DNA from: a virus
Taxonomy: Duplodnaviria; Heunggongvirae; Uroviricota; Caudoviricetes
Direction: 5' to 3' (one strand)
Virus record (IMG/VR): IMGVR_UViG_2778261217_000001
Span: 1 to 11,172 of that record
DNA: 11,172 nucleotides
The translations under genes and the position numbers were made by a program. The notes under the pieces were generated by a model, which ran no database searches, was not told the DNA's origin, and was given only the letters and a program-made list of their open reading frames with translations. Positions 1-11,172 of the stretch are shown here, piece by piece. Position 1 is the first letter of the stretch, and each line of letters begins with the position of its first letter.

Positions 1-1260
1 ATGAAGCTCAACGCCAGACAGGTCGAGACCGCAAAGCCAAAAGATAAAACCTACAAAATGGCCGATGGCGGCGGTTTATATCTTGAGGTTTCTGCAAAGG
101 GTTCTAAATACTGGCGCATGAAATACAGACGCCCCTCTGACAAAAAAGAGGATCGCCTCGCTTTTGGTGTTTGGCCTACCGTGACGCTTGCTCAGGCAAG
201 GGCAAAGCGTGATGAAGCTAAAAAGCTGTTAGTGCAGGGCATCGACCCAAAAGCCGAACAGAAAGAAGCTCAGGCCGTGAACTCGGGGGCATACACTTTC
301 GAAACTATCGCTCGTGAATGGCACGCCAGTAACAAGCGCTGGAGTGAAGACCATCGATCACGCGTTCTACGCTATCTTGAGCTTTATATTTTCCCCCATA
401 TCGGTTCGTCCGACATTCGGCAGCTTAAAACCAGCCACCTGTTAGCCCCGATTAAAAAAGTTGATGCCAGCGGCAAACACGATGTCGCTCAGCGCCTGCA
501 ACAGCGCGTCACGGCCATTATGCGTTATGCCGTACAGAATGATTACATCGACTCAAATCCAGCCAGCGATATGGCCGGTGCGCTATCGACAACCAAAGCG
601 CGACATTACCCGGCTTTACCTTCCAGCCGGTTCCCTGAGTTTCTTGCACATCTAGCTGCATATCGTGGCCGTGTAATGACACGGATCGCGGTCGAGCTTT
701 CCTTGCTAACTTTTGTGCGCTCCAGTGAGTTACGTTTCGCGCGTTGGGATGAATTCGACTTCGATAAATCTCTTTGGCGTATACCTGCAAAACGAGAAGA
801 AATTAAAGGCGTGCGTTATTCGTACCGAGGCATGAAGATGAAAGAGGAACATATCGTTCCGCTTAGTCGGCAGGCGATGATTTTATTGAATCAGTTAAAG
901 CAGATTAGTGGTGATAAAGAGCTGCTTTTTCCGGGGGATCACGACGCAACTAAGGTTATGAGTGAAAACACCGTAAACAATGCATTGCGTGCCATGGGTT
1001 ATGATACGAAAACTGAGGTCTGTGGGCATGGTTTTAGGACGATGGCGCGTGGTGCTTTGGGTGAGTCAGGGTTATGGAGTGATGATGCGATTGAGCGCCA
1101 GTTAAGCCACTCAGAACGTAACAATGTTCGTGCGGCGTATATTCATACTTCTGAGCATTTGGAAGAGCGTCGGCTTATGATTCAGTGGTGGGCTGATTAT
1201 TTGCAAGAGTGTTATAAAGGGCCAATAACGCCATACGAATTTGCAAAGAAATCTCAGTAG
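1..1260 (+). CDS. int: P4-type tyrosine integrase (site-specific recombinase)
   Basis: 419-aa ORF. N-terminus AKPKDKTYKMADGGGLYLEVSAKGSKYWRMKYR is typical of P4/CP4-57-type integrases; C-terminal catalytic motifs HGFRTMARG (H-x-x-R) and a tyrosine in AAYIHTSEH. ORF starts at window base 1, so no upstream tRNA/att context is visible. Confidence 0.9.
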   Translation: MKLNARQVETAKPKDKTYKMADGGGLYLEVSAKGSKYWRMKYRRPSDKKEDRLAFGVWPTVTLAQARAKRDEAKKLLVQGIDPKAEQKEAQAVNSGAYTFETIAREWHASNKRWSEDHRSRVLRYLELYIFPHIGSSDIRQLKTSHLLAPIKKVDASGKHDVAQRLQQRVTAIMRYAVQNDYIDSNPASDMAGALSTTKARHYPALPSSRFPEFLAHLAAYRGRVMTRIAVELSLLTFVRSSELRFARWDEFDFDKSLWRIPAKREEIKGVRYSYRGMKMKEEHIVPLSRQAMILLNQLKQISGDKELLFPGDHDATKVMSENTVNNALRAMGYDTKTEVCGHGFRTMARGALGESGLWSDDAIERQLSHSERNNVRAAYIHTSEHLEERRLMIQWWADYLQECYKGPITPYEFAKKSQ

Positions 1261-1280
1261 AAAACATAAAATCTATTAGT

Positions 1281-1296
1281 TGTGATAGATATCACT
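1281..1296. promoter_or_regulatory. CRP-like palindrome TGTGA-N6-TCACT upstream of the cargo operon (alternatively a weak int terminator stem)
   Basis: tgtgatagatatcact matches the CRP half-sites TGTGA / TCACA at 9 of 10 positions; perfect 6-bp inverted repeat gtgata/tatcac (1282..1287, 1290..1295); followed by a T-rich tract. Confidence 0.25.
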
Positions 1297-1406
1297 TTGT
1301 TTTTATTGAAATATAACGAGGTTTATGCATCATAGGGCATAGTGCAAGTATATAAATAGATAACAAGCTAATAATTTTTCAAGATAATTATATTAAGAGG
1401 TGTTTA

Positions 1407-1577
1407 ATGGAAGTTAACGTGGTCACCATTGTTTTGGGGGTGTGTTTGTTTGCTGCTATCGTTGCCGTGCCTGTATGGAAAATAAGCGCAAGATTTTTCT
1501 TCAAAGGAGGAGTAAAAAATAAACTCAAAAATGTTTCAATTAATGGCGATTATACTGGTCGAGATAAGAAAAATTAA
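1407..1577 (+). CDS. Small predicted membrane protein, 56 aa (not in ORF track)
   Basis: ATG at 1407 preceded by AAGAGG (1395..1400, 6-nt spacer). Translation MEVNVVTIVLGVCLFAAIVAVPVWKISARFFFKGGVKNKLKNVSINGDYTGRDKKN has one hydrophobic helix; ends in tandem stops TAA TAA. C-terminal 20 aa repeat the N-terminus of the next gene. Confidence 0.4.
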   Translation: MEVNVVTIVLGVCLFAAIVAVPVWKISARFFFKGGVKNKLKNVSINGDYTGRDKKN

Positions 1578-1652
1578 TAAGGCCATTGTATGGGTATTTT
1601 TAATAGGCTGAAAAATGTTTTTGTAAATGGTGATTATGTTGGAAGGGATAAA
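1509..1652 (+). repeat. In-frame imperfect tandem duplication (copies 1509..1568 and 1593..1652, offset 84 bp) spanning the end of the mini-ORF and the start of the 180-aa gene
   Basis: Peptide GVKNKLKNVSINGDYTGRDK versus GIFNRLKNVFVNGDYVGRDK (14/20 identical); the DNA copies align over about 46 bp at roughly 75% identity. Confidence 0.55.
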
Positions 1653-2132
1653 ATTGTCTATAATACAGAACCCACTCAGCTAATGCTATTGCAAGAGGAG
1701 TATCAGGAAGAGTTTAAAAATAGGCAAATTTGCACAGAAATGATTGATGAACTGAATCATTATAATACCAAAAAAAGTAAAGTGCGTGATTTGGAAGTTA
1801 AACTTAATGCTGCTGGGTACTCTTCCTTTCTTGACGAAGCTCGCGAGTTAAAAGAGTTGGTTTCGAAATTAATTATACAATATCAGCATTATCGCTCAGC
1901 ACAGAAAATAATCGCTTTTTTATTGTCAGACGTTCATTCAATTTTTCAATACAGAATAAAACCTCATATAGTAAATAAACAACAAGAGGCACAGATCCTT
2001 GAATTAATATATTTATATATAGAGTGTGAACTGAGTAGAAAGTTAGGTATAAATGCCTTGGAGATATATAATAGACAATTGCGTGGTATGGTTTTCTTCC
2101 TTACAGGAAACTGTCATTTGGAGTGGGAATAA
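1590..2132 (+). CDS. Hypothetical protein, 180 aa (cargo operon gene A; no recognisable motif)
   Basis: ORF in AT-rich island, same strand as and immediately after the mini-ORF; stop TAA overlaps the next start as TAATG (2130..2134). Confidence 0.6.
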   Translation: MGIFNRLKNVFVNGDYVGRDKIVYNTEPTQLMLLQEEYQEEFKNRQICTEMIDELNHYNTKKSKVRDLEVKLNAAGYSSFLDEARELKELVSKLIIQYQHYRSAQKIIAFLLSDVHSIFQYRIKPHIVNKQQEAQILELIYLYIECELSRKLGINALEIYNRQLRGMVFFLTGNCHLEWE

Positions 2133-2629
2133 TGTTATTATATAACAAGGCATTTGATATCAATCATACTATTCTAAGAATGTCTTCATGGCTGCTAAAT
2201 AGCTCTGAGCCGTTAATAAGTCTTGAGGGTATAAGAATATTTGACTTCTTAATAGCATTTCCTGAGTACATATCCAAGTTATCACTAGGGAAAGAATTAG
2301 TGAAGGAAAGAAATAAGTTCAAAAGGTTTTCTAACCCTTATAATGCTTTTGATCCTCAATCCTTGTTTCAGCAAATGGAAGGGGTGCAAAAATCTGCAAT
2401 TTGTTCTTTAGTAACAGCATCAGTTTTAGTAGAAATTAATAATGAATTATATGAAATAAAAAAAGATAAGTTATATGCGATTGGATTTACCAAAACCAAT
2501 CTTTTTGATAGCATAAACGAAGATGTGATCTCATTTATCAGTAACAATCTTGAGACATTACCTGTAACGGGAATAACTGGACTTAAGGCCGCTAGCAAAT
2601 TAATGAGTTTTAAATATGATCGTATATAA
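2132..2629 (+). CDS. Hypothetical protein, 165 aa (cargo operon gene B; ORF track starts it at GTG 2123)
   Basis: ATG at 2132 overlaps the upstream stop (TAATG); purine-rich ggagtggg at 2120..2127; 3' end overlaps the ATPase gene start by 14 nt. Confidence 0.6.
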   Translation: MLLYNKAFDINHTILRMSSWLLNSSEPLISLEGIRIFDFLIAFPEYISKLSLGKELVKERNKFKRFSNPYNAFDPQSLFQQMEGVQKSAICSLVTASVLVEINNELYEIKKDKLYAIGFTKTNLFDSINEDVISFISNNLETLPVTGITGLKAASKLMSFKYDRI

Positions 2630-4529
2630 TCCCACATTGAATATTAAAAAACTTTACGCATTCAAGGATGGTAAAGAGGTCATACACTTGAAGTTTCATA
2701 ATGGGCTGAATGTCATATATGGCTCGAACGGAAGCGGAAAAACCTCGGCAATTCAGTTACTCGCGTATGTTCTTGGTTCTACGATCTATAATTGGAAAGA
2801 AGAAGCAGGGAGTTGTGATTACGTTATAGCTGAAATTTACGCAAATGAGTCTACTATAACCATTCGTCGTGAGATAAGTGACACAATGGCAGGTATGAGC
2901 ATTTTTTTTGGTACATATGAAGAAAGTATCAAAGCAGGGAAAACTGGATGGTTTAGCTACCCCTACGCAATTTCTACTAACAAGGAAAGTTTTTCACAAC
3001 GTATCTTTGAAATCTTAAACATACCTGAGGCTAAATCTGACGGGATTAATAATCTTACTTTACATCAAATCCTAAGGCTGGTGTATAACAACCAATCTGA
3101 TTCTGCAACAAGTATATTTAACGACGAGAAGTTTGATTCCGCAATAAAACGAGAGTTTGTAAGTAATTATTTGCTCGGTTTGTATGATGATGATCTTTAT
3201 AATAATAAATTAGAGTATATTAAAAAAGAAAAAGAGCTAACAAAAACAATAGCTGAGTTAAAGGGTTTACTATTATTAATAGATGGTCAAGATCTTGATT
3301 TTAAATCTGATAATTTAGATAGCTTATCTGAACAATTACAGGGAAAGATCGATTCTATAATTGAAGAAATTGAAAAGTATAAAGAGTTAGATACACGGAT
3401 AAAATTTAGTAATGAAGTTAAGGCAATTAGTGCAGAACAATTAGTGAAGGATAAGAACAAGCTTATTGCCTTGGAGGTTGAATTAAGTCAAATACAATAT
3501 AATATTGTTGATTCAACCAAATTTATTGAAGAATTACAAAATAAATTACTTGCTATTAATGATTCAATTAAATTTAATAGTTCATTCAAGTTTAAAGAGT
3601 TCGATACCTGCCCATCATGTTTTACTAAGTTGCCAACTGCTCATGATGATAGTAAATGCTCTCTATGTGGTACAGAAGACCCGGATTCGGCAAAGCAAAT
3701 TAATTATGCTAGAATGAAAAATGAAATAATGATTCAAATCAACGAGTCACAAAATCTTTTGGAAAGGAATAAAATAAAGAGTGGTGAGATCTCAAAGCAA
3801 ATAAAATGCTTAAAAAGTGGAATGCGGAAAGAAGTTAACAAAGTTTCGGTTGTTAGTTCATCTTTGAATTCCCATGATGATAGCTTACTTTATAGTAAAT
3901 ATAAAGAGATTGGAGAGCTTGAAGAAAGACTAGATACTTTAGGTCGTATGGAGTCCGTTTATTCAAAAATTAAAACACTTCAGACTCTCCGCGATAGCTT
4001 ACAAGCCAGAGTTACATTTTTACAAGAAAACATTAGTAAAAAAGAACATGATCTTCAGTTAAAAATGCCAGCACTGAAAGAGAAAGTCAGTGAATATATG
4101 GAAGAAGTTTTAACTAAAGATGTCGAAAATATTGATGATCCTCATGATAAAGCTGAATTTAGTAACATAACTAGCATCGACTTTGATCTGGCTTCAAATA
4201 GGATTGTTGTCAATAATAAAGTCTCATTCTCTGAGAGCTCAATGTACTATCTTAATAATGCCCTGCATATAGCATTGCTAAAATTAAGTTTGGTTGATCC
4301 TAATGTAAGATTTCCACGTCTTTTAATTCTGGACGGTATAGAAAATGGTGGCATGGAAGATGCTCGCTCACAGGGTATCCAAAAAACTTTAAAAGAAATT
4401 TCTGATGAGTTTTGCGGGGTTCGGCATCAGATTATTATTACAACTAAAGGAATATACCATGCCGTTGATAATGATAAATATCGAGTTGGAGAAAAATTTA
4501 CTTCATCAAATCGTAGTTTAAATATGTGA
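2616..4529 (+). CDS. SMC/Rad50-like ABC ATPase, 637 aa (Walker A head, long coiled-coil, C-terminal Walker B-like segment)
   Basis: N-terminal LNVIYGSNGSGKTSAIQLLAYVLG (Walker A GSNGSGKT, SMC_N-like); long K/E/L/I-rich heptad-like middle containing CPSC-N13-CSLC (about 3609..3666); C-terminal FSESSMYYLNNALHIALL followed by RLLILDGIENGGMED (hydrophobic run ending in D, Walker B/D-loop-like). Confidence 0.8.
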   Translation: MIVYNPTLNIKKLYAFKDGKEVIHLKFHNGLNVIYGSNGSGKTSAIQLLAYVLGSTIYNWKEEAGSCDYVIAEIYANESTITIRREISDTMAGMSIFFGTYEESIKAGKTGWFSYPYAISTNKESFSQRIFEILNIPEAKSDGINNLTLHQILRLVYNNQSDSATSIFNDEKFDSAIKREFVSNYLLGLYDDDLYNNKLEYIKKEKELTKTIAELKGLLLLIDGQDLDFKSDNLDSLSEQLQGKIDSIIEEIEKYKELDTRIKFSNEVKAISAEQLVKDKNKLIALEVELSQIQYNIVDSTKFIEELQNKLLAINDSIKFNSSFKFKEFDTCPSCFTKLPTAHDDSKCSLCGTEDPDSAKQINYARMKNEIMIQINESQNLLERNKIKSGEISKQIKCLKSGMRKEVNKVSVVSSSLNSHDDSLLYSKYKEIGELEERLDTLGRMESVYSKIKTLQTLRDSLQARVTFLQENISKKEHDLQLKMPALKEKVSEYMEEVLTKDVENIDDPHDKAEFSNITSIDFDLASNRIVVNNKVSFSESSMYYLNNALHIALLKLSLVDPNVRFPRLLILDGIENGGMEDARSQGIQKTLKEISDEFCGVRHQIIITTKGIYHAVDNDKYRVGEKFTSSNRSLNM

Positions 4530-4539
4530 TTTTGAACAG

Positions 4540-4566
4540 GTGCGGCTTTAGCTGCACTTGTCTTTT
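4540..4566 (+). terminator. Candidate intrinsic terminator after the ATPase gene
   Basis: 7-bp stem gtgcggc/gctgcac (one G-U pair), loop ttta, then T-rich ttgtcttttg, 11 nt after the stop codon. Confidence 0.45.
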
Positions 4567-4761
4567 GAATAATAATATATCGCAATTATTAATTCCGTGT
4601 AACTTTATTATTGTCTATGTTATTTATAGATGTTGGCGTTATATTATCGGTCGATAATGGATTTGAGCTATTTTAGGTTAGTTAAAGTTGTTTTAAAAAT
4701 TCGATAAAGAAAATAATTTGATACTCACAAATCCTTTCTTAGCATACTTAAAGTACCTCTT

Positions 4762-4795
4762 ACGCGCGCAGCCCCGCCCGCCTGCCCGCTTCGCT
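4762..4795. other. GC-rich cos-like element (candidate packaging/cohesive-end site)
   Basis: acgcgcgcagccccgcccgcctgcccgcttcgc is an abrupt GC-rich block at the AT-rich island boundary; its reverse complement ggcgggcggggctgcgc resembles the P2/P4 cos end GGCGAGGCGGGGAAAGCAC as I recall it (partial match only). Confidence 0.25.
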
Positions 4796-4865
4796 TAACA
4801 GACTGGTTTTCATGCACCCCGTAAACCGTCTCAGAAGCCACCACACAAGGGCTTTCGCGTCAAAA

Positions 4866-4900
4866 ATGGCGCATGAGACTCATGCGTTTTCATGCGCCAT
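4866..4900. terminator. Nested palindrome / candidate bidirectional terminator or operator between convergent operons
   Basis: atggcgcatga (4866..4876) and tcatgcgccat (4890..4900) are perfect reverse complements; inner gcatgag-a-ctcatgc palindrome; A-run on the left and tttt inside. Confidence 0.35.
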
Positions 4901-4944
4901 AGATATGCACTCATACGCTCTCAGGCCAGCCAGGGAAAAGGCGT

Positions 4945-4969
4945 AAAAAATCCCGGTACTGGACCGGGA
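4945..4969 (-). terminator. Candidate intrinsic terminator of the sid-psu-delta operon
   Basis: Stem tcccggt/accggga (4951..4957, 4963..4969) with loop actgg; on the minus strand it is followed by TTTTTT (plus-strand aaaaaa 4945..4950); lies 23 nt past the delta stop. Confidence 0.45.
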
Positions 4970-4991
4970 CTTCGTGGTCGTATTTTGCTAA

Positions 4992-5264
4992 TCAGACAGG
5001 AATTTGCTGACGGTTTGACAGCTTTGACGCGGAGCCATAGCGATTGAGTGTTTGCTGTTGTTTTTCCGGTATTTTTGCTTTGTCTGATTCCTGTTCATTG
5101 CACTGAGGCTTCATAATGATCGTATCCACGCTTTCCAGTGCGGTAAATGTGCAGGAACATTCCAGATTCTGGCACTGATACCATGAGCGTTTAACCGACG
5201 GAGCTTCATAGGCGCTGGTTCTGGCGTGAGCGACCGCGCCACATTCAGGACACTTCAGGGCCAT
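4992..5264 (-). CDS. delta: Ogr/Delta-family zinc-finger late transcription activator, 90 aa (start moved to internal ATG)
   Basis: MALKCPECGAVAHARTSAYEAPSVKRSWYQCQNLECSCTFTALESVD carries the Ogr/Delta C-x2-C ... C-x4-C pattern. ATG at 5264..5262 is preceded by AAGGAG and sits 1 nt after the psu stop; the ORF-track start at 5366 would overlap psu by about 100 nt. Confidence 0.85.
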   Translation of the reverse strand: MALKCPECGAVAHARTSAYEAPSVKRSWYQCQNLECSCTFTALESVDTIIMKPQCNEQESDKAKIPEKQQQTLNRYGSASKLSNRQQIPV

Positions 5265-5265
5265 A

Positions 5266-5820
5266 TCAGCACACTCCTTTTTCATTAAGTCGGTTAAGGC
5301 GGGCCAGGAAAACTTTATGTTGTGCCGGGGTGAAACTGGCTGAAGCATCAGCGCGCATTGATGCATCCACCGTTAATCCGGTTTCGTCGATAATGCTCTT
5401 ATATGCTGCTGAAATTACCGGAGTACGGACTTCCGTTTGTCGGGCTACAGCGGTTCGTAATATTTTCATTGCCGCCTCAAGCCCGTATGGTGCACAAAGA
5501 AAAGGAGCCAGAGCGTCAGTGAGTGCATCACCATGCTCGCTCATGAAGTTTTCAGTTGCGCTTGTAACACAGCTTTCCAGCACAATCTGGTGAGCATAAA
5601 GACCATCCCGGGCGGCACAGTTAATCTGCCATTCGAGGAGTGCAAGACGCTCACGAAGATCCTCAAGTTGGCTGGCATATGCTGCGGGTTTTTCTTCAGT
5701 ATCCAGCAAAGCAGCCAGACGAAGCTGGCTGGTACTTTGCACATTACGTAGTGTCAGCCAGCTTTTTATTGCCGCGCGGTAATCGTTGAGAGCTTCCTGA
5801 GTAATGGTTCCGGTATTCAT
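5266..5820 (-). CDS. psu: Psu-like polarity suppression protein, 184 aa
   Basis: Size and motifs (EHGDALTDALAPFL, FTPAQHKVF) match my recollection of P4 Psu (about 190 aa); start ATG overlaps the sid stop (ATGA, 5817..5820). Confidence 0.75.
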   Translation of the reverse strand: MNTGTITQEALNDYRAAIKSWLTLRNVQSTSQLRLAALLDTEEKPAAYASQLEDLRERLALLEWQINCAARDGLYAHQIVLESCVTSATENFMSEHGDALTDALAPFLCAPYGLEAAMKILRTAVARQTEVRTPVISAAYKSIIDETGLTVDASMRADASASFTPAQHKVFLARLNRLNEKGVC

Positions 5821-6569
5821 TCCTTCTCGCCCCCTTTAGCCATGTCACGCTGTTTAAGCATCCGGGAACGTGCTGCAGGGCTGGGTGATTGTCTGGCATC
5901 CTGTATGGCTTTATCGTCCGCATAAATGCTGATCCCCGGCAGGGCAATATCATCCGTTGAAGATACGTTACAGAACAGTGCCGGAGTGGTGAGTTGCTCG
6001 CTGATAAATTGCTTCAGCACACTTTCGGGGTCGTTTACGGTATGAACTACACCGATAACAGAAGATGCGCTTCGGCCCAGAGTCATTTTCAGCAGTCCAA
6101 GGATCTGAATAAGTTTCTGGCCGTGTTCCTTCATAAACTCATTCCAGAGCCACACTGCATGAGTTTCAATCAGGTGATTATGTTCGCTGATGTAGCGGTT
6201 TGCAGCATCCGCAGTTTTCCATGGCAGGAATTCATTTTCTGCAGCCTGAGCAGCCAGCAAATCTTCGAACTCATCCAGTGTTTCGCGTCCGAGGGCGATT
6301 TCTGCCCGCAGTTTTTTCATTCGTGGCGTCATATTCCCCTGATTCTCACGAAACAGGTTTCGCCATTCATCATTAAGCGCCTGCGTCTCCGTTTTTGTAT
6401 CTTCCTGACGTTTACGGATAGTTTCAGTCATTGCAGCGGCTTCGGTTTGTTTTCGCCGTTCTTCCTGCCAGACAGCTTTTGCTGCCTTAACTTTTTCCAC
6501 CGCTTCGCGAATTTTCGGCGGGAGGGTGGGGGTAATGTTTGCATCAGAGATCTGGTTAACAGTTGTCAT
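5817..6569 (-). CDS. sid: Sid-like capsid size determination protein, 250 aa from ATG 6569 (ORF track starts it at TTG 6602)
   Basis: E/K/A/Q-rich helical protein at the head of the operon, coupled to psu; ATG at 6569 has GGAG with a 5-nt spacer, whereas 6602 is TTG without a Shine-Dalgarno. Assignment is by position and size; I do not recall a sequence motif for it. Confidence 0.5.
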   Translation of the reverse strand: MTTVNQISDANITPTLPPKIREAVEKVKAAKAVWQEERRKQTEAAAMTETIRKRQEDTKTETQALNDEWRNLFRENQGNMTPRMKKLRAEIALGRETLDEFEDLLAAQAAENEFLPWKTADAANRYISEHNHLIETHAVWLWNEFMKEHGQKLIQILGLLKMTLGRSASSVIGVVHTVNDPESVLKQFISEQLTTPALFCNVSSTDDIALPGISIYADDKAIQDARQSPSPAARSRMLKQRDMAKGGEKE

Positions 6570-6603
6570 GGCTGCTCCGGTAGTGTTTTGTTGTTGTGTC
6601 AAT

Positions 6604-6659
6604 TGTGCCGGGGTCCATACAAGCGCACTACCGAGGAGGATTGTGTCAGTGACTGAACA
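6604..6659 (-). promoter_or_regulatory. Two TGT-N12-ACA elements upstream of sid (candidate Delta/Ogr-responsive late promoter)
   Basis: tgtgccggggtccataca (6604..6621) and tgtgtcagtgactgaaca (6642..6659); TGT-N12-ACA is the consensus for Ogr/Delta-activated P2/P4 late promoters; the distal site centre is about 81 nt upstream of the sid ATG. Confidence 0.4.
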
Positions 6660-6726
6660 ATGACCTTGTTCTGGCTAGCCAGAGAAAGGTGTCATGTCTG
6701 ATCTATACGCTTCCTTTAATACATAC

Positions 6727-6930
6727 TATTCACTACTGTTCACTTCAATAAAAATATAGTAAATACATGTGGTTAAGTGGTGTAGTGTTTTAATTAAAGT
6801 GATCATCTACTGTTCATGACTGTTCACAGAGATAAAATTAAACATATATTTTTTTTTCATATAAGTCGCGATATTTATTTCAGTTTATTACTGGATCTTT
6901 TCTCCTCACCAATATTCACCAGTATTCAAT
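6727..6930. repeat. Iteron-like direct repeats in the AT-rich divergent region (candidate ori)
   Basis: Exact 8-mer actgttca three times in one orientation (6735..6742, 6809..6816, 6819..6826), plus tattcacc (6913..6920) and tattcaat (6923..6930); these resemble the P4 alpha-binding iteron TGTTCACC as I recall it. Confidence 0.35.
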
Positions 6931-7474
6931 ACATATTCTATGTAAAGAATAAAAGATGTCTTATGTCTGTTTAATAATTAAACATTCAACCTCCCTGCAC
7001 TCAGTTGCATTTCAGGAAAATATTCATAAAAATGAATTTGTCTGATGTTCATTAAACACATCCGGATACATGCGGAAGTAAGATGGTAATTTAATTTCTT
7101 TAATCATCGGATTTATTGATACATATGGTGAGCTGTTTATTTTTGGCCGTTTTTGGCTCTTTTATTAATCAGGTGTTGTCTTAGTGCTTATGATGTAACG
7201 CCCTGAATGATATGGGCTGGTTCAGATTTGAGCTGTGATCCTGCCTAGTGTAATAGACTTTTTTATTATTGATGCTCCTTATTATATTCCATAAAGGAAT
7301 TGTTTGTTTTTGTTCGTTTCATACGGTTTTTAGCTGTTTTATTTTTTGAGAAATCAACATTTCACACAAAATAAATAAAGCATGCGCGAGCCGCTTATAT
7401 AAACATAATAAGGAGCTACCTGAATCCGCATGGAATTGCCCGGACTGTTGTAAACATATTAGAGAGGTAGCCAG

Positions 7475-7735
7475 ATGAATAGTATTTCCGTTTCCACCCC
7501 GGCACCAGCTGCTCCGGTGCTCCCGGTTCCGGCTCAGCAGGAGCGCTTCATACGATTACCTGAAGTGATGCACCTTTGCGGGCTATCCCGTTCAACCATC
7601 TACGACCTTATCAGCCGCGATGCCTTCCCGCAGCAGATATCCCTGGGTGGAAAAAATGTGGCCTGGGTACAGTCGGAGGTCAGTGCATGGATGGCGGCGC
7701 GAATTGCTGCCCGCGAGCAAGGAGGCCATGCGTGA
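7475..7735 (+). CDS. alpA: AlpA-family (Vis-like) phage transcriptional regulator / excisionase-like DNA-binding protein, 86 aa
   Basis: [50 protein letters not shown] is the characteristic AlpA/MerR-like HTH core; SD gagg with 7-nt spacer before ATG 7475. Confidence 0.85.
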
Positions 7736-7770
7736 AACTTGCTTTGCAGTCTCATCTCCTTTTTTCTGGC

Positions 7771-7800
7771 TTGCGTCCTGATATCTTTTCCAGGTATAGT
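7771..7800 (+). promoter_or_regulatory. Candidate sigma70 promoter for the immunity/replication operon (PLE-like)
   Basis: TTGCGT (7771..7776), 18-nt spacer, TATAGT (7795..7800). Confidence 0.35.
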
Positions 7801-7830
7801 TTTCCCGCTGCCGCAAAATCGGCTGCCGGG

Positions 7831-7855
7831 CGTAGGAACCCGAGTTACTTATTGG
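7831..7855 (+). promoter_or_regulatory. seqA-like antisense target site (a/b boxes)
   Basis: gtaggaa (7832..7838) and cttattgg (7848..7855) are exact complements of ttcctac and ccaataag in the downstream antisense element. Confidence 0.4.
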
Positions 7856-7862
7856 CGACACC

Positions 7863-7885
7863 AGACGCGCCGTGCGTCTTTTTTT
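7863..7885 (+). terminator. Intrinsic terminator directly after the seqA-like site
   Basis: Stem agacgc/gcgtct (7863..7868, 7874..7879), loop gccgt, then seven T (7879..7885). Confidence 0.5.
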
Positions 7886-7949
7886 ACGTCGTTGCTCAGG
7901 CACACCCATTTTTCGGGCTGCGGTGCTTATACCTTAGCCCCTTTCAGAT

Positions 7950-8030
7950 AATGGTGGTCCGGGCGGGGCAGCCTTCGGGCTGGCCGGTTTCCAATAAGGC
8001 CGGTATTCCTACCCCCGTTCGGGTCACCAC
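7950..8030 (+). ncRNA. c4/CI-like antisense immunity RNA candidate (boundaries approximate)
   Basis: Structured GC-rich segment with a UUCG-loop hairpin (gggcagcc-ttcg-ggctggcc, 7966..7985) followed by ccaataag (7991..7998) and ttcctac (8006..8012), which pair with two bipartite target sites on the same strand; no plausible ORF. Confidence 0.4.
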
Positions 8031-8037
8031 CCATGAG

Positions 8038-8080
8038 CGTAGGAACTCCGGTGGTGGCATTTACCGCTACTTATTGGAGG
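8038..8080 (+). promoter_or_regulatory. seqC-like antisense target site overlapping the ribosome-binding site of the first small ORF
   Basis: gtaggaa (8039..8045) and cttattgg (8070..8077); the latter runs into GGAGG (8076..8080), the Shine-Dalgarno of the ATG at 8089. Confidence 0.4.
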
Positions 8081-8088
8081 TTGCCCTT

Positions 8089-8280
8089 ATGGCTACGATC
8101 CTCGCCCCGTCACATCCTCAATTTATATTTGTTTTTGCCGCCGTTCGTCGTGCAGAACGTAAACCACGTATCAGTATGCTGCGTATCATCGCCAGCAATG
8201 AGCATCATGCACGTCTTTCACTGGTCCATGAGTATGTGCTTTGTCTTGCTGCTCGCCTGCCTGTCCGGGAGGTGATCTAA
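8089..8280 (+). CDS. Small hypothetical protein, 63 aa (3' part of track ORF 7576..8280; first gene controlled by the antisense module)
   Basis: GGAGG with 8-nt spacer before ATG 8089; stop TAA overlaps the next start (TAATG 8278..8282); same RBS style as the two following ORFs. Confidence 0.4.
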
Positions 8281-8504
8281 TGAATCACGCCGCAATCTCT
8301 TATGACGATATTCTCCGCCTGAAGCATCTTCGTAACGTGGGAGAGTTTGTCACCGGAATGGCTGTTCTTCAGGATTGCTACGAAAAACCTGCCAGTGCTC
8401 AATGTGAACAACTGGTTTCCCTGATTTATCTGATGACAGAGCAGCTTGATGGCGTGGTACAGCGTTGCCAGGATGACCTCATGAACATGGAGGTGGTGCA
8501 ATGA
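8280..8504 (+). CDS. Small hypothetical protein, 74 aa (track ORF 8241..8504 trimmed to the ATG)
   Basis: GGAGG (8268..8272) with 7-nt spacer before ATG 8280; stop overlaps the next start as ATGA. Confidence 0.6.
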
Positions 8505-8824
8505 AATCACGTACTCTTTCCCTTTCACTTCGGGTAGCGTTGTATCGCCGCGCGGTAGCCTGCGCCTGGTTGAGTGCCTGCTATCAGCAAAACCGCCATC
8601 TGCAGCTCACTCTGGATGAAATTGAAACCGCTATTGCCCGTGAGCTTGAAGGATTTTATCTGCGACAGCACGGGCAAACAAAAGGCATGGAAATCGCCTG
8701 CGCCCTGCTTTCAGACCTGATGGAATACGGCCCTCTAATGTCCTGTCCCGCACTCTCCCAGCTCGGAATAGCCGTAATGGATGAGTTATGCGTCCGTCAC
8801 ATCAAAAAGCCGGTTTTACACTGA
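8501..8824 (+). CDS. Small hypothetical protein, 107 aa
   Basis: GGAGG (8489..8493) with 7-nt spacer; ATGA overlap with the upstream stop; ends 14 nt before the primase start. Confidence 0.6.
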
Positions 8825-8838
8825 GGGAGAACTGCGTC

Positions 8839-11172
8839 ATGTCAGGAATGAAAGTCAGTCAGGCCGTGAAGGCTGCCCGCGGTCACTGGGCTCAGATTCT
8901 GCCAGCGCTGGGCGTGAATATATTGAAAAATCGCCATCAGCCTTGCCCGGTCTGTGGCGGTAAAGATCGTTTTCGCTTCGACGATCAGGAAGGACGCGGA
9001 ACATGGTTCTGCAATCAGTGCGGAGCCGGGGATGGTTTAGCGCTTGTCACCAGGGCACTGAATGTGGATATCAGTGAAGCAGCTGACAGGATACATGGAC
9101 TGACACATGATCTGTCTATAGTTAATTCCGAGGTCAGGACGTTAACCGCCGATACCGATAGCGGGAAAGATGCAGCGGCAGCACTTGCCGCGCGACTGCT
9201 GCAAGCCTCGCGTGAATCTGCCGGAAACACTTATCTTACACATAAAGGTTTCCCGGAGCATATTTGCCATGAGCTGACTTCAGCTCATAAGGCCGGTGGT
9301 GTGATGTTCCGCCCCGGTGATTTGATCGTCCCACTCTATAACGCTGACGGGGAGCTGGTGAATATTCAGCTTATCAGTGGCAATGGTAGCAAGTGTTTTC
9401 TTAAAGGAGGTCAGGTTAAGGAGGCCTATCATCTGATAGAAGGGGGCGGGAGTTCTGTAAGAAGGATTTGGATTGCGGAAGGTTACGCCACGGCGCTTAC
9501 CATTCATTATTTGACAGGAGAAGCCGTCATGGTGGCATTTTCGTCGGTCAACTTTCTTTCTCTGAGCAGCGTTGCCCATAATAAGTATCCTGGATATCAG
9601 TTAATTATTGCAGCGGACCGCGATCTGAATGGTTCAGGCCAGAACAGGGCTGAAACTGCTGCAAAAGCGAGTCAGTGTGACATTGTGCTGCCACCGGTTT
9701 TTGGTGACTGGAATGATGCGCTTACCCAATACGGAGAGGAATCCACCAGGACGGCAATTCTTGAGGCTTTGAAGCCACATAACGCCAGTCCTTTCGACAC
9801 AATGAGTGAAGCAGAATTCACAGCGATGAGTGTCAGCGAAAAAGCTCAGAGGGTTCGGGAGCATTACAGGGATGCACTGGCGGTTGATTCGAACGGGCAG
9901 CTTTTATCCCGCTACGAGTCTGGAGCGTGGAAAGTTATTTCTCAGTCAGATTTTGCCCGAGATGTCGCAGCCCTTTTCCAGCGCCTCGGGGCACCGTTTT
10001 CCTCAGGAAAAATTGCCTCACTGGTGGAAACATTAAAGTTAATTGTTCCGCAGCAGCAAAATCCGTCACGTCATCTGATTGGTTTTCGTAATGGCGTTCT
10101 CGATACGCGAACAGGGCTTTTTAGTCCGCACTGTAAAGAGAACTGGCTGCGTACCCTGTGTGAAGTCGATTTCACGCCACCGGTAAAGGGGGAAACGCTT
10201 GAAACTCATGCCCCGGCATTCTGGCGTTGGCTGGACCGGGCCGCCGGACACAAGCCAGCAAAACGCGACATTATTCTTGCAGCGTTATTTATGGTGCTGG
10301 CGAACCGCTATGACTGGCAGCTCTTTCTGGAAGTGACTGGCCCTGGTGGAAGTGGCAAAAGTATTCTGGCTGAAATTGCGACCATGCTTGCTGGAGAGGA
10401 TAACGCCACCTCTGCGACCATTGAAACGCTGGAGTCCCCGCGAGAACGTGCGGCTCTGATAGGTTTTTCTCTTATTCGCCTGCCTGATCAGGAGAAGTGG
10501 AGCGGCGACGGCGCCGGGCTTAAGGCTATAACTGGTGGCGATGCAGTATCTGTGGACCCCAAATATCAGAATGCTTATTCAACACATATTCCGGCGGTTA
10601 TCTTGGCCGTAAATAATAATCCTATGCGCTTCACTGATCGCAGTGGTGGTGTGTCCCGCAGGAGAGTTATTCTGCATTTTCCTGAGCAGATAGCACCGGA
10701 AGAACGCGATCCGCAGTTGAAAGATAAAATTGCACGAGAACTGGCTGTGATTGTTCGTCAGCTCATGCAGCGTTTCAGCGATCCGATGAGCGCCAGAACA
10801 TTGCTTCAGTCGCAGCAGAATTCTGATGAGGCTCTCACCATCAAGCGTGATGCTGATCCAGCATTTGATTTTTGTGGCTACCTTGAGGCATTACCTGACA
10901 CCAACGGCATGTTTATGGGGAACGCCAATATTGTCCCGCGCCAGCCACGTACGTACCTTTACCATGCCTATCTTGTATACATGGAGGCTAATGGCTTTAA
11001 AAATACCCTTAGCCTGACAATGTTTGGCAAAGGGCTACCAGTTATGCTGAAGGAATACGGGCTAAATTATGAGAAGCGGCGAACTAATCAGGGAATGCAG
11101 ACTAACCTCACTTTAAAAGAGGAAAGTAATGCAGACTGGCTTCCCAAGTGTGATGAGCCAACAATCAAATAA
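8839..11172 (+). CDS. alpha: P4 alpha-type primase/helicase, 777 aa (start moved to ATG 8839)
   Basis: N-terminal zinc-binding motif CPVCGGKDRFRFDDQEGRGTWFCNQCG; acidic TOPRIM-like region (IIAADRD); Walker A VTGPGGSGKSILAEIA in the C-terminal half; SD gggaga at 8825..8830. The 777-aa length equals P4 alpha as I recall it. Confidence 0.9.
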   Translation: MSGMKVSQAVKAARGHWAQILPALGVNILKNRHQPCPVCGGKDRFRFDDQEGRGTWFCNQCGAGDGLALVTRALNVDISEAADRIHGLTHDLSIVNSEVRTLTADTDSGKDAAAALAARLLQASRESAGNTYLTHKGFPEHICHELTSAHKAGGVMFRPGDLIVPLYNADGELVNIQLISGNGSKCFLKGGQVKEAYHLIEGGGSSVRRIWIAEGYATALTIHYLTGEAVMVAFSSVNFLSLSSVAHNKYPGYQLIIAADRDLNGSGQNRAETAAKASQCDIVLPPVFGDWNDALTQYGEESTRTAILEALKPHNASPFDTMSEAEFTAMSVSEKAQRVREHYRDALAVDSNGQLLSRYESGAWKVISQSDFARDVAALFQRLGAPFSSGKIASLVETLKLIVPQQQNPSRHLIGFRNGVLDTRTGLFSPHCKENWLRTLCEVDFTPPVKGETLETHAPAFWRWLDRAAGHKPAKRDIILAALFMVLANRYDWQLFLEVTGPGGSGKSILAEIATMLAGEDNATSATIETLESPRERAALIGFSLIRLPDQEKWSGDGAGLKAITGGDAVSVDPKYQNAYSTHIPAVILAVNNNPMRFTDRSGGVSRRRVILHFPEQIAPEERDPQLKDKIARELAVIVRQLMQRFSDPMSARTLLQSQQNSDEALTIKRDADPAFDFCGYLEALPDTNGMFMGNANIVPRQPRTYLYHAYLVYMEANGFKNTLSLTMFGKGLPVMLKEYGLNYEKRRTNQGMQTNLTLKEESNADWLPKCDEPTIK

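Follow-up and report, generated by a model that had tools for sequence, protein, structure and literature searches.

A probable immunity-RNA target at the kil ribosome-binding site of a P4-like satellite prophage of Escherichia coli

What is the role of a short sequence box that runs straight into the Shine-Dalgarno (SD) sequence of a small phage gene? The question is raised by positions 8038-8091 of an 11,172-nucleotide (nt) stretch of caudoviricete DNA (IMG/VR record IMGVR_UViG_2778261217_000001, positions 1 to 11,172; the whole stretch is referred to below as the window). The original prediction, made from the letters of the sequence alone, held that an antisense RNA pairs with this box, occludes the ribosome-binding site (RBS) of the first of three coupled small open reading frames (ORFs) and, through polarity, reduces the expression of the primase encoded downstream, in parallel with the c4 control of icd-ant in phage P1. 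Here, we analyzed the locus and its relatives and conclude that the immunity RNA of a P4-like satellite prophage most probably has its downstream target in this region, at the site denoted seqC in P4 and a2/b2 in P1. The site can thus be viewed as the on/off switch of the replication operon of such a prophage.

The arrangement that gave rise to the question is plainly seen in the sequence: CTTATTGG (cttattgg, 8070-8077) overlaps GGAGG (8076-8080) by 2 nt, and the ATG at 8089-8091 follows 8 nt past the SD. The downstream target is, however, larger than first described and consists of two boxes, a2 and b2, which together span 8039-8080 (Table 1). The 8-mer CTTATTGG occurs three times in the window, on the plus strand at 7848 and 8070 and as the complement at 7991-7998, and GTAGGAA, the sequence of the a2 box, shows the same two-plus-one pattern (7832 and 8039, with the complement at 8006-8012). 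By itself, the count of the 8-mer is only suggestive as evidence against chance, given an expectation of 0.51 copies and the fact that 5 of 200 shuffles reach 3. By contrast, the bipartite pattern GTAGGAA-N(5-30)-CTTATTGG has 3 occurrences and is absent from all 200 shuffles. An origin of the repeated boxes by chance, or as a by-product of the coding constraint on the eta-like ORF that traverses the region, could appeal to the marginal count of the single 8-mer and to the coding nature of the region, which is open in the eta frame and covered by the Pfam family Phage_ASH, but it offers no account of the bipartite pattern and, as detailed below, fails on comparative grounds.

The complements of both boxes fall within an RNA that matches the full length of the Rfam model of C4 antisense RNAs. 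The predicted fold of this RNA (-47.2 kcal/mol, z = -3.25) comprises a long closing stem, two internal hairpins and a single-stranded junction; past the stem, a CCA-like 3' tail can be seen. Both the a and the b boxes are complementary to exposed parts of this fold, the former to the junction and the latter to the loop of hairpin 2, as is the case in C4/CI modules. The loop pairs with 8070-8080 and, if two G.U pairs are counted, covers the whole of GGAGG, so that the downstream b target overlaps the RBS of a first ORF of the Icd/Kil family, another hallmark of these modules. Antisense RNAs of the C4/CI type are processed by RNase P and PNPase from the same transcript that bears their targets; by comparison with the ends of P1 c4, the mature RNA is predicted to extend from about 7953 to 8031 (79 nt). 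Directly upstream of the C4-like RNA, we identified an isrK-like leader, in which two hairpins at the 5' end precede a single-stranded spacer and an intrinsic terminator. The first copy of the target is exposed there in the same manner: box a1 (GTAGGAA, 7832-7838) lies in the loop of hairpin 2, and box b1 (CTTATTGG, 7848-7855) lies in the spacer. Leaders of the isrK type are equivalent to seqA of P4 (PMC4825925, PMC3632133).

Whether these complementarities are maintained by selection was addressed by a comparative survey. A search of IMG/VR for exact occurrences of the invariant C4 scaffold yielded 120 loci; 116 of these could be parsed, and they represent 47 types of loop and junction combinations. 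The 77 distinct sequences were aligned using MAFFT, and the intermolecular pairs were counted as a named structure. A perfect complement of the loop, at least 6 nt long, is located downstream in 42 of the 47 types and a complement of the 7-nt junction in 45, with similar numbers of matches for the upstream target copy. The longest match averages 6.9-7.8 nt for the targets of the same locus type, compared to 3.7-4.7 nt for those of other types. A clear b box (a match of at least 6 nt) is recognized in 42 types, and in 41 of these it overlaps the SD; across the specificity types, the ATG lies 7-13 nt past the end of the box. Among the 77 variants, the a':a2 duplex is paired in 100%, with six of its seven pairs changed on both sides; in b':b2, all six variable positions change on both sides; and the loop CC and the SD GG are paired with hardly any exceptions, the SD being the part of the target that never varies. 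The closing stem of the C4 RNA is likewise 100% paired, and 4 of its pairs have changed on both sides. A shift of the partner columns by 1-3 positions lowers the overall pairing from 97.6% to 32-50%. The changes on both sides, together with the loss of pairing upon this shift, constitute strong evidence from the alignment that the pairing of the boxes is under selection. They also refute, jointly with the shuffling of the bipartite pattern, the origin of the boxes by chance or coding constraint, to which we assign a negligible probability: 12 intermolecular pairs change on both sides, and coding constraint cannot produce covariation of reverse complements at three sites.

The survey further revealed reassortment of the two boxes. 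The 116 loci include 21 distinct matched strings of the b box, corresponding to about 14 core specificities, and 8 a-box sequences, which occur in at least 47 combinations. This pattern suggests that the two boxes recombine and that P4-like satellites use a combinatorial code of immunity. In one natural alternative specificity, the loop CCAAUAAG is replaced by CCUUGAAG, with the corresponding change in b2 from CUUAUUGG to CUUCAAGG. Natural compensatory variants of this kind are ready-made specificity swaps for experiments.

How, then, would the pairing act? In the mechanism that we propose, a PLE-like promoter would transcribe, in this order, the leader with its target copy (a1/b1, 7832-7855) and t1, the C4/CI RNA, the second target copy, and kil, the 74-amino-acid (aa) ORF, the DUF5375 gene and the alpha primase gene. 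By analogy with P4 and P1, the C4/CI RNA would be excised from the very transcript in which its targets lie. In a lysogen, the stable CI RNA would pair with a2 via its junction UUCCUAC and with b2 via its loop UUUCCAAUAAG. The GGA of the kil SD and, in this element, the entire GGAGG would be covered by the b2 duplex, so that 30S subunits could not load. The untranslated kil RNA would then be subject to Rho termination within kil, at the equivalent of the P4 terminator timm and ahead of the replication genes, and early termination would probably occur also at a CI-dependent site near seqC; the outcome in the lysogen would be silent replication genes. The upstream copy a1/b1, located directly before the intrinsic terminator, presumably mediates autoregulation of CI, as has reportedly been observed for t1 of P4. 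Escape from immunity would involve transcripts from an upstream late promoter that are translated through as the eta-like ORF, coupled to the alpA-like gene, the ribosomes stripping the RNA pairings as they advance.

The polarity onto the primase that was originally envisaged has its counterpart in P4. The Rho-dependent terminator timm of P4 has been delimited to X51522 8365-8209 (PMC3177188), and translation of kil and eta governs read-through (PMC10111431). The timm fragment maps to L002 2236-2392 and, accordingly, begins exactly at the ATG of P4 kil; by analogy, polarity at the present locus would be part of the known mechanism, in the form of transcription termination. The composition of the segment 8065-8154 (33% C, 17-18% G) is C-rich and G-poor as in P4 and is compatible with a rut site. 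The predicted occlusion of the kil RBS stands insofar as the loop is complementary to both the box and the SD, and homology and covariation point in the same direction. Simple occlusion is, however, probably only part of the mechanism because the published outcome of the pairing in P4 is premature transcription termination. Thus, RBS occlusion is very likely a real, selected feature, but it may be neither the sole nor the dominant effect of the pairing, and by analogy with P4, we infer that the regulatory outcome at this locus is repression through a translational block and/or termination.

Several observations weigh against the interpretation of the site as one at which CI shuts off kil by occluding its RBS. 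The b2 duplex, with 9 Watson-Crick and two G.U pairs, has a predicted energy of -11.1 kcal/mol, and the other box duplex contributes -7.7 kcal/mol; the total of -18.8 kcal/mol is to be set against opening costs of +4.2 kcal/mol for CI and +14.65 kcal/mol for the target, such that the balance is about zero. In these model terms, binding of CI may have to be co-transcriptional or assisted. (The duplex of whole CI with seqC, at -64 kcal/mol, was discarded as uninformative because it presupposes complete unfolding of CI; the box duplexes and opening energies were used instead.) In addition, folding in cis is predicted to close the SD, whose probability of being unpaired is below 0.2 in 71 of the 77 variants. 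If the isolated mRNA hides its own SD, as the folding model has it, CI may not be needed merely to occlude it. Furthermore, Briani et al. (2000) are said to have found that termination in P4 lysogens occurs mainly at t4, a CI-dependent, Rho-independent site between cI and timm, in which case the translational block would be secondary. Finally, the ogr/delta-like zinc-finger gene of the element, at about 5067-5264 (L001 5668-5865, minus strand), is a truncated pseudogene according to RefSeq, so that the element may be partly defective, for example, in activating the late genes of the helper; the immunity region is intact.

The reported role of t4 defines one rival explanation, whereby the pairing of CI at a2/b2 mainly triggers termination by RNA polymerase near seqC, independently of Rho and of translation, and the overlap with the SD is incidental or reinforcing. 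This is a serious possibility, even if we rate it as rather unlikely. According to the literature, pairing of the P4 CI RNA, which derives by processing from the leader of the transcript initiated at PLE, with seqA and seqC results in premature termination (PMC4825925, PMC3632133). The terminator scan finds a terminator-like hairpin with a U-rich tail at 8049-8066, between a2 and b2, and closure of the SD in cis even without CI would render occlusion by CI dispensable. But with 6 pairs, two of which are G.U, this hairpin is weak, and in P4, its tail is not U-rich. Moreover, the near-universal overlap of the b box with the SD, the fixed distance to the ATG and the conserved UCC of the loop, which always pairs with the GGA of the SD, argue for selection of the RBS itself as the target. 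For its part, the annotation of P1 specifies repression of translation, and the location of timm inside kil makes sense only if translation of kil matters.

The same cis structure bears on a second rival explanation. The SD-sequestering pairing involves CUCC, a predicted cis anti-SD directly past a2. The 77 variants show no convincing covariation in this hairpin (CUCC:GGAG); given that both CUCC and the SD are invariant, covariation neither supports nor refutes it, and the hairpin remains a thermodynamic prediction. The adjacent segment GGUGGUGGC has two potential partners, one of which is the 3' arm of the C4 stem. The resulting alternative helix (8023-8031:8050-8058) is 98.8% paired in the 77 variants, with 4 of its 9 pairs changed on both sides, and its version in P4 is GCTATCGCC/GGCGATAGC. 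Neither the C4 stem nor the SD-sequestering hairpin can coexist with it, so that a chain of mutually exclusive helices emerges that leaves room for a mechanism of the IsrK type. We know of no description of such a helix between the 3' arm of C4 and seqC.

In a mechanism of this type, the long transcript would be translationally silent in cis, with either the C4 loop or CUCC sequestering its SD, and the leader at 7807-7884 would act in trans as an anti-antisense RNA, titrating out the C4 loop and rendering the kil RBS accessible. The match of the leader to the Rfam isrK model (72 bits), the predicted closure of the SD in cis and the identity of a1/b1 with a2/b2, which implies that the leader must compete with seqC for CI, all fit this scheme, and there is a precedent in Gifsy-1, where the short IsrK RNA binds the read-through transcript and makes the RBS of orf45 accessible (PMC4825925). 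However, seqA of P4 has been assigned to termination and the establishment of immunity rather than to activation (PMC3632133), and IsrK of Gifsy-1 retained its effect when the C4-like RNA was co-expressed (PMC4825925). Moreover, activation by the leader would be an added layer that does not contradict the b':b2 pairing. We consider such a circuit improbable.

Combining these elements, we tentatively entertain a broader scheme. Let H1 be the C4 closing stem, H2 the alternative helix 8023-8031:8050-8058, and H3 the helix 8046-8058:8066-8079 that includes CUCC:SD. The seqC region could be the last in this series of mutually exclusive helices, such that folding or processing of the immunity RNA in cis would set the state of the kil RBS, and CI and the seqA leader would shift the switch; the reassorting boxes (about 14 b and 8 a types in at least 47 combinations) could amount to a two-key immunity code. 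If true, such a combinatorial code would allow many P4-like satellites to coexist without cross-repression. This scheme is speculative, and we put it forward with considerably less confidence than the assignment of the site as the downstream target of CI.

Table 1. Coordinates of the features of the immunity region and the adjoining operon in the window
Feature	Position	Strand	Basis and remarks
AlpA-like gene	7475..7735	+	Pfam Phage_AlpA 4e-20; RefSeq coding sequence (CDS); stop overlaps GTG start of the eta-like ORF
Eta-like ORF, 182 aa, in the kil frame	7732..8280	+	RefSeq CDS 'Icd-like'; spans both RNA genes and both target sites
PLE-like constitutive promoter (putative)	7771..7800	+	-35 TTGCGT 7771-7776, -10 TATAGT 7795-7800; homology with P4
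isrK-like leader RNA (P4 'seqA RNA')	7807..7884	+	Rfam RF01394, 72.1 bits (gathering score 50), model 1-77
t1-like intrinsic terminator	7863..7885	+	stem AGACGCG/TGCGTCT, then T7; terminator scan; 3' end of the isrK model
C4/CI-type immunity antisense RNA	7947..8034	+	Rfam RF01695, 83.4 bits (gathering score 45), E = 1e-15, full model 1-87
b' box, UUUCCAAUAAG	7988..7998	+	loop of hairpin 2 (12-nt loop); complementary to b1 and b2
a' box, UUCCUAC	8006..8012	+	single-stranded junction; complementary to a1 and a2; opening cost 0.01 kcal/mol
a2 box, GTAGGAA	8039..8045	+	first half of the downstream target (P4 seqC, P1 a2)
CUCC, predicted cis anti-SD	8046..8049	+	directly past a2; pairs with GGAG 8076-8079 (RNAalifold)
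GGUGGUGGC	8050..8058	+	two alternative pairing partners: 3' arm of the C4 stem (8023-8031), 8066-8075
b2 box, CUUAUUGGA + GG	8070..8080	+	9 Watson-Crick pairs plus two G.U pairs (GG); overlaps SD GGAGG 8076-8080
kil/icd-like ORF, 63 aa	8089..8280	+	NCBIfam NF033153 phage_ICD_like 9e-20; first translated gene past the PLE-like promoter
timm-equivalent stretch (Rho-dependent terminator), inferred position	8089..8245	+	mapping of the P4 timm fragment
74-aa ORF	8280..8504	+	RefSeq CDS, phrog_10110 (function unknown); start overlaps kil stop, TAATG 8278-8282
DUF5375 gene, 107 aa	8501..8824	+	Pfam DUF5375 2e-48; P4 match, counterpart of P4 ORF106; start overlaps previous stop, ATGA 8501-8504
alpha-type primase-helicase gene	8839..11172	+	Pfam Zn_Ribbon_Prim, Toprim_3, D5_N, Pox_D5; RefSeq CDS; cargo under the immunity circuit

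The operon controlled by this site is organized as originally described, with three small ORFs coupled by stop/start overlaps ahead of the primase gene. The assignment of the PLE-like promoter relies on the alignment with P4, in which its -10 element corresponds to the TATAGT annotated in record X02534 (L003 1897-1902); a scan of 7150-8900 for promoter consensus sequences called none. The product of the first ORF is 71% identical to the 65-aa Kil protein of P4 (L002 2236-2433), and Kil homologues were found also in N15, phiKO2 and PY54; a search of genome contigs with the 63-aa protein alone retrieved only 2 loci. As in P4, where kil is nested in eta (PMC10111431), kil lies within the 3' end of an eta ORF that begins at the end of alpA. 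The P4 counterpart of this ORF is an ORF at 1789-2433 with three consecutive ATG codons. In 87 of 97 distinct loci, the eta-like frame stays open over at least 340 nt ahead of the kil ATG, compared to 2-3 loci for the other two frames. The 74-aa ORF that follows kil stands in the place of epsilon and orf151 of P4 and gave no Pfam or NCBIfam match; its candidacy as a homologue of P4 epsilon was ruled out for lack of similarity.

The annotation of this region is problematic. In RefSeq, the immunity RNA genes and their targets carry no annotation, and the ORF that overlaps the RNA genes goes under the names 'transcriptional repressor', 'Icd-like' or 'Ash protein' in databases. The first of these labels, given in PHROGs and RefSeq to the eta-type ORFs of P4 and N15, is a legacy of the period when the immunity factor was believed to be a protein. 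The match to Pfam Phage_ASH (PF10554, 'Ash protein family') extends over aa 22-131 of the eta-like ORF and coincides exactly with its region of overlap with the isrK-like and C4 RNA genes.

The genomic setting places the window in a P4-like satellite prophage of E. coli, as indicated by the RefSeq annotation of an identical locus, Pfam matches and similarity to P4. A 1.5-kb query from the region is 100% identical to E. coli chromosomes, in which the prophage adjoins tRNA-Leu; about 158 complete E. coli genome records contain a match to the query with at least 99% identity, and relatives were detected in about 1,180 of 5,426 genomes. The best phage match of the query is the satellite phage P4, with 70.6% DNA identity across 74% of its length. 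The gene set, as annotated by RefSeq and Pfam, is that of a P4-like satellite: integrase, psu, a sid-like gene, alpA, eta/kil, DUF5375 (cnr-like) and the alpha primase-helicase.

Two neighboring regions deserve mention. Between the integrase and psu genes (1590-4529; L001 2354-5293) lies a variable hotspot with a three-gene 'ABC-three component system' (RefSeq), which consists of an AAA ATPase and two small proteins; this content fits the anti-phage hotspots that have reportedly been found in P4-like satellites. Downstream of the window, past the primase gene, L001 12343-17501 contains integrase fragments and several insertion sequence (IS) elements (IS3, IS21/IS100kyp), which suggests that the tRNA-Leu site holds a decayed or composite island.

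The closest of the known systems is that of P4, whose immunity region, studied by Deho, Ghisotti and colleagues (X51522), reportedly consists of the CI RNA (seqB), its targets seqA and seqC, the nested kil and eta genes, and the terminators t1, t4 and timm. The order PLE, isrK-like leader, C4/CI RNA, seqC and kil is the same, and P4 yields both Rfam hits, arranged likewise; the type of satellite is the same, with an integrase, psu, a sid-like gene, alpA, DUF5375 and the alpha primase; and in both elements, the eta frame is open, the Kil proteins are closely similar, and seqC overlaps the kil SD. By contrast, the boxes are TTCACAGG/CCTGTGAA and GTGAGAA/TTCTCAC in P4, as opposed to CTTATTGG/CCAATAAG and GTAGGAA/TTCCTAC in the window, the differences being compensatory at all three sites. 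At the level of RNA, the specificity is CCUGUGAA and UUCUCAC in P4, and CCAAUAAG and UUCCUAC here. Given that both specificity boxes differ, P4 and the element in the window are predicted to be heteroimmune. Further differences include the b2 duplex (9 bp in P4 compared to 11 bp here, counting the two G.U pairs and thereby the whole GGAGG), the replacement of epsilon and orf151 by the unrelated 74-aa ORF, and the truncation of the delta-like gene in the prophage of the window. The element is a presumably heteroimmune, uncharacterized relative of P4 whose biology is that of textbook P4 and P1, so that the locus confirms rather than extends current knowledge. The mildly new points, all from the survey of loci, are the free reassortment of the boxes, the alternative helix between the 3' arm of C4 and seqC, and the predicted cis anti-SD.

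Among temperate phages, Gifsy-1 of Salmonella shares with the present locus an isrK-like leader, a processed C4-like RNA (STnc1160) and a small first ORF with an RBS controlled by RNA structure. In its IsrK-orf45-anrP system, however, the short leader RNA activates translation, and the cargo is an antirepressor (PMC4825925). The secondary immunity systems of the linear-plasmid prophages N15, phiKO2 and PY54 contain the same module along with the Kil homologues, and the leader and C4 DNA have an 80% match in phiKO2. Unlike the element in the window, Gifsy-1, N15, phiKO2 and PY54 are all full temperate phages rather than satellites.

The comparison with P1, from which the original prediction started, holds for the geometry of b2 and icd and for the Icd-family first ORF, although P4, with its CI RNA, seqC, kil and timm, is the closer relative. 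Citron and Schuster (1990) reportedly described immI of P1 and P7, in which the c4 antisense RNA acts with a1/b1 and a2/b2 to control icd-ant. The P1 record NC_005856 annotates a1/b1, c4 (48343-48419) and a2/b2, with the note 'repression of icd ant translation'; b2 (48452-48459) overlaps GAGG and ends 10 nt before the icd ATG (48470). Shared features are the Rfam C4 family, two boxes with one copy upstream and one downstream of the RNA, an Icd-family first ORF and the distance of 10 nt between b2 and the ATG. DNA similarity to P1 was not detectable with the 1.5-kb query, and a tblastn search with Kil did not reach P1. No leader of the isrK type was seen in P1, although no search was aimed at one. 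The cargo also differs: in P1, it is the antirepressor ant1/2, and the icd-ant operon is additionally under the control of the C1 protein repressor, whereas here it is a replication operon, with the 74-aa ORF, the DUF5375 gene and the primase gene downstream of kil instead of a homologue of ant. Judged by its gene content, therefore, the locus resembles P1 immI in the way it is predicted to work but belongs to a different type of operon.

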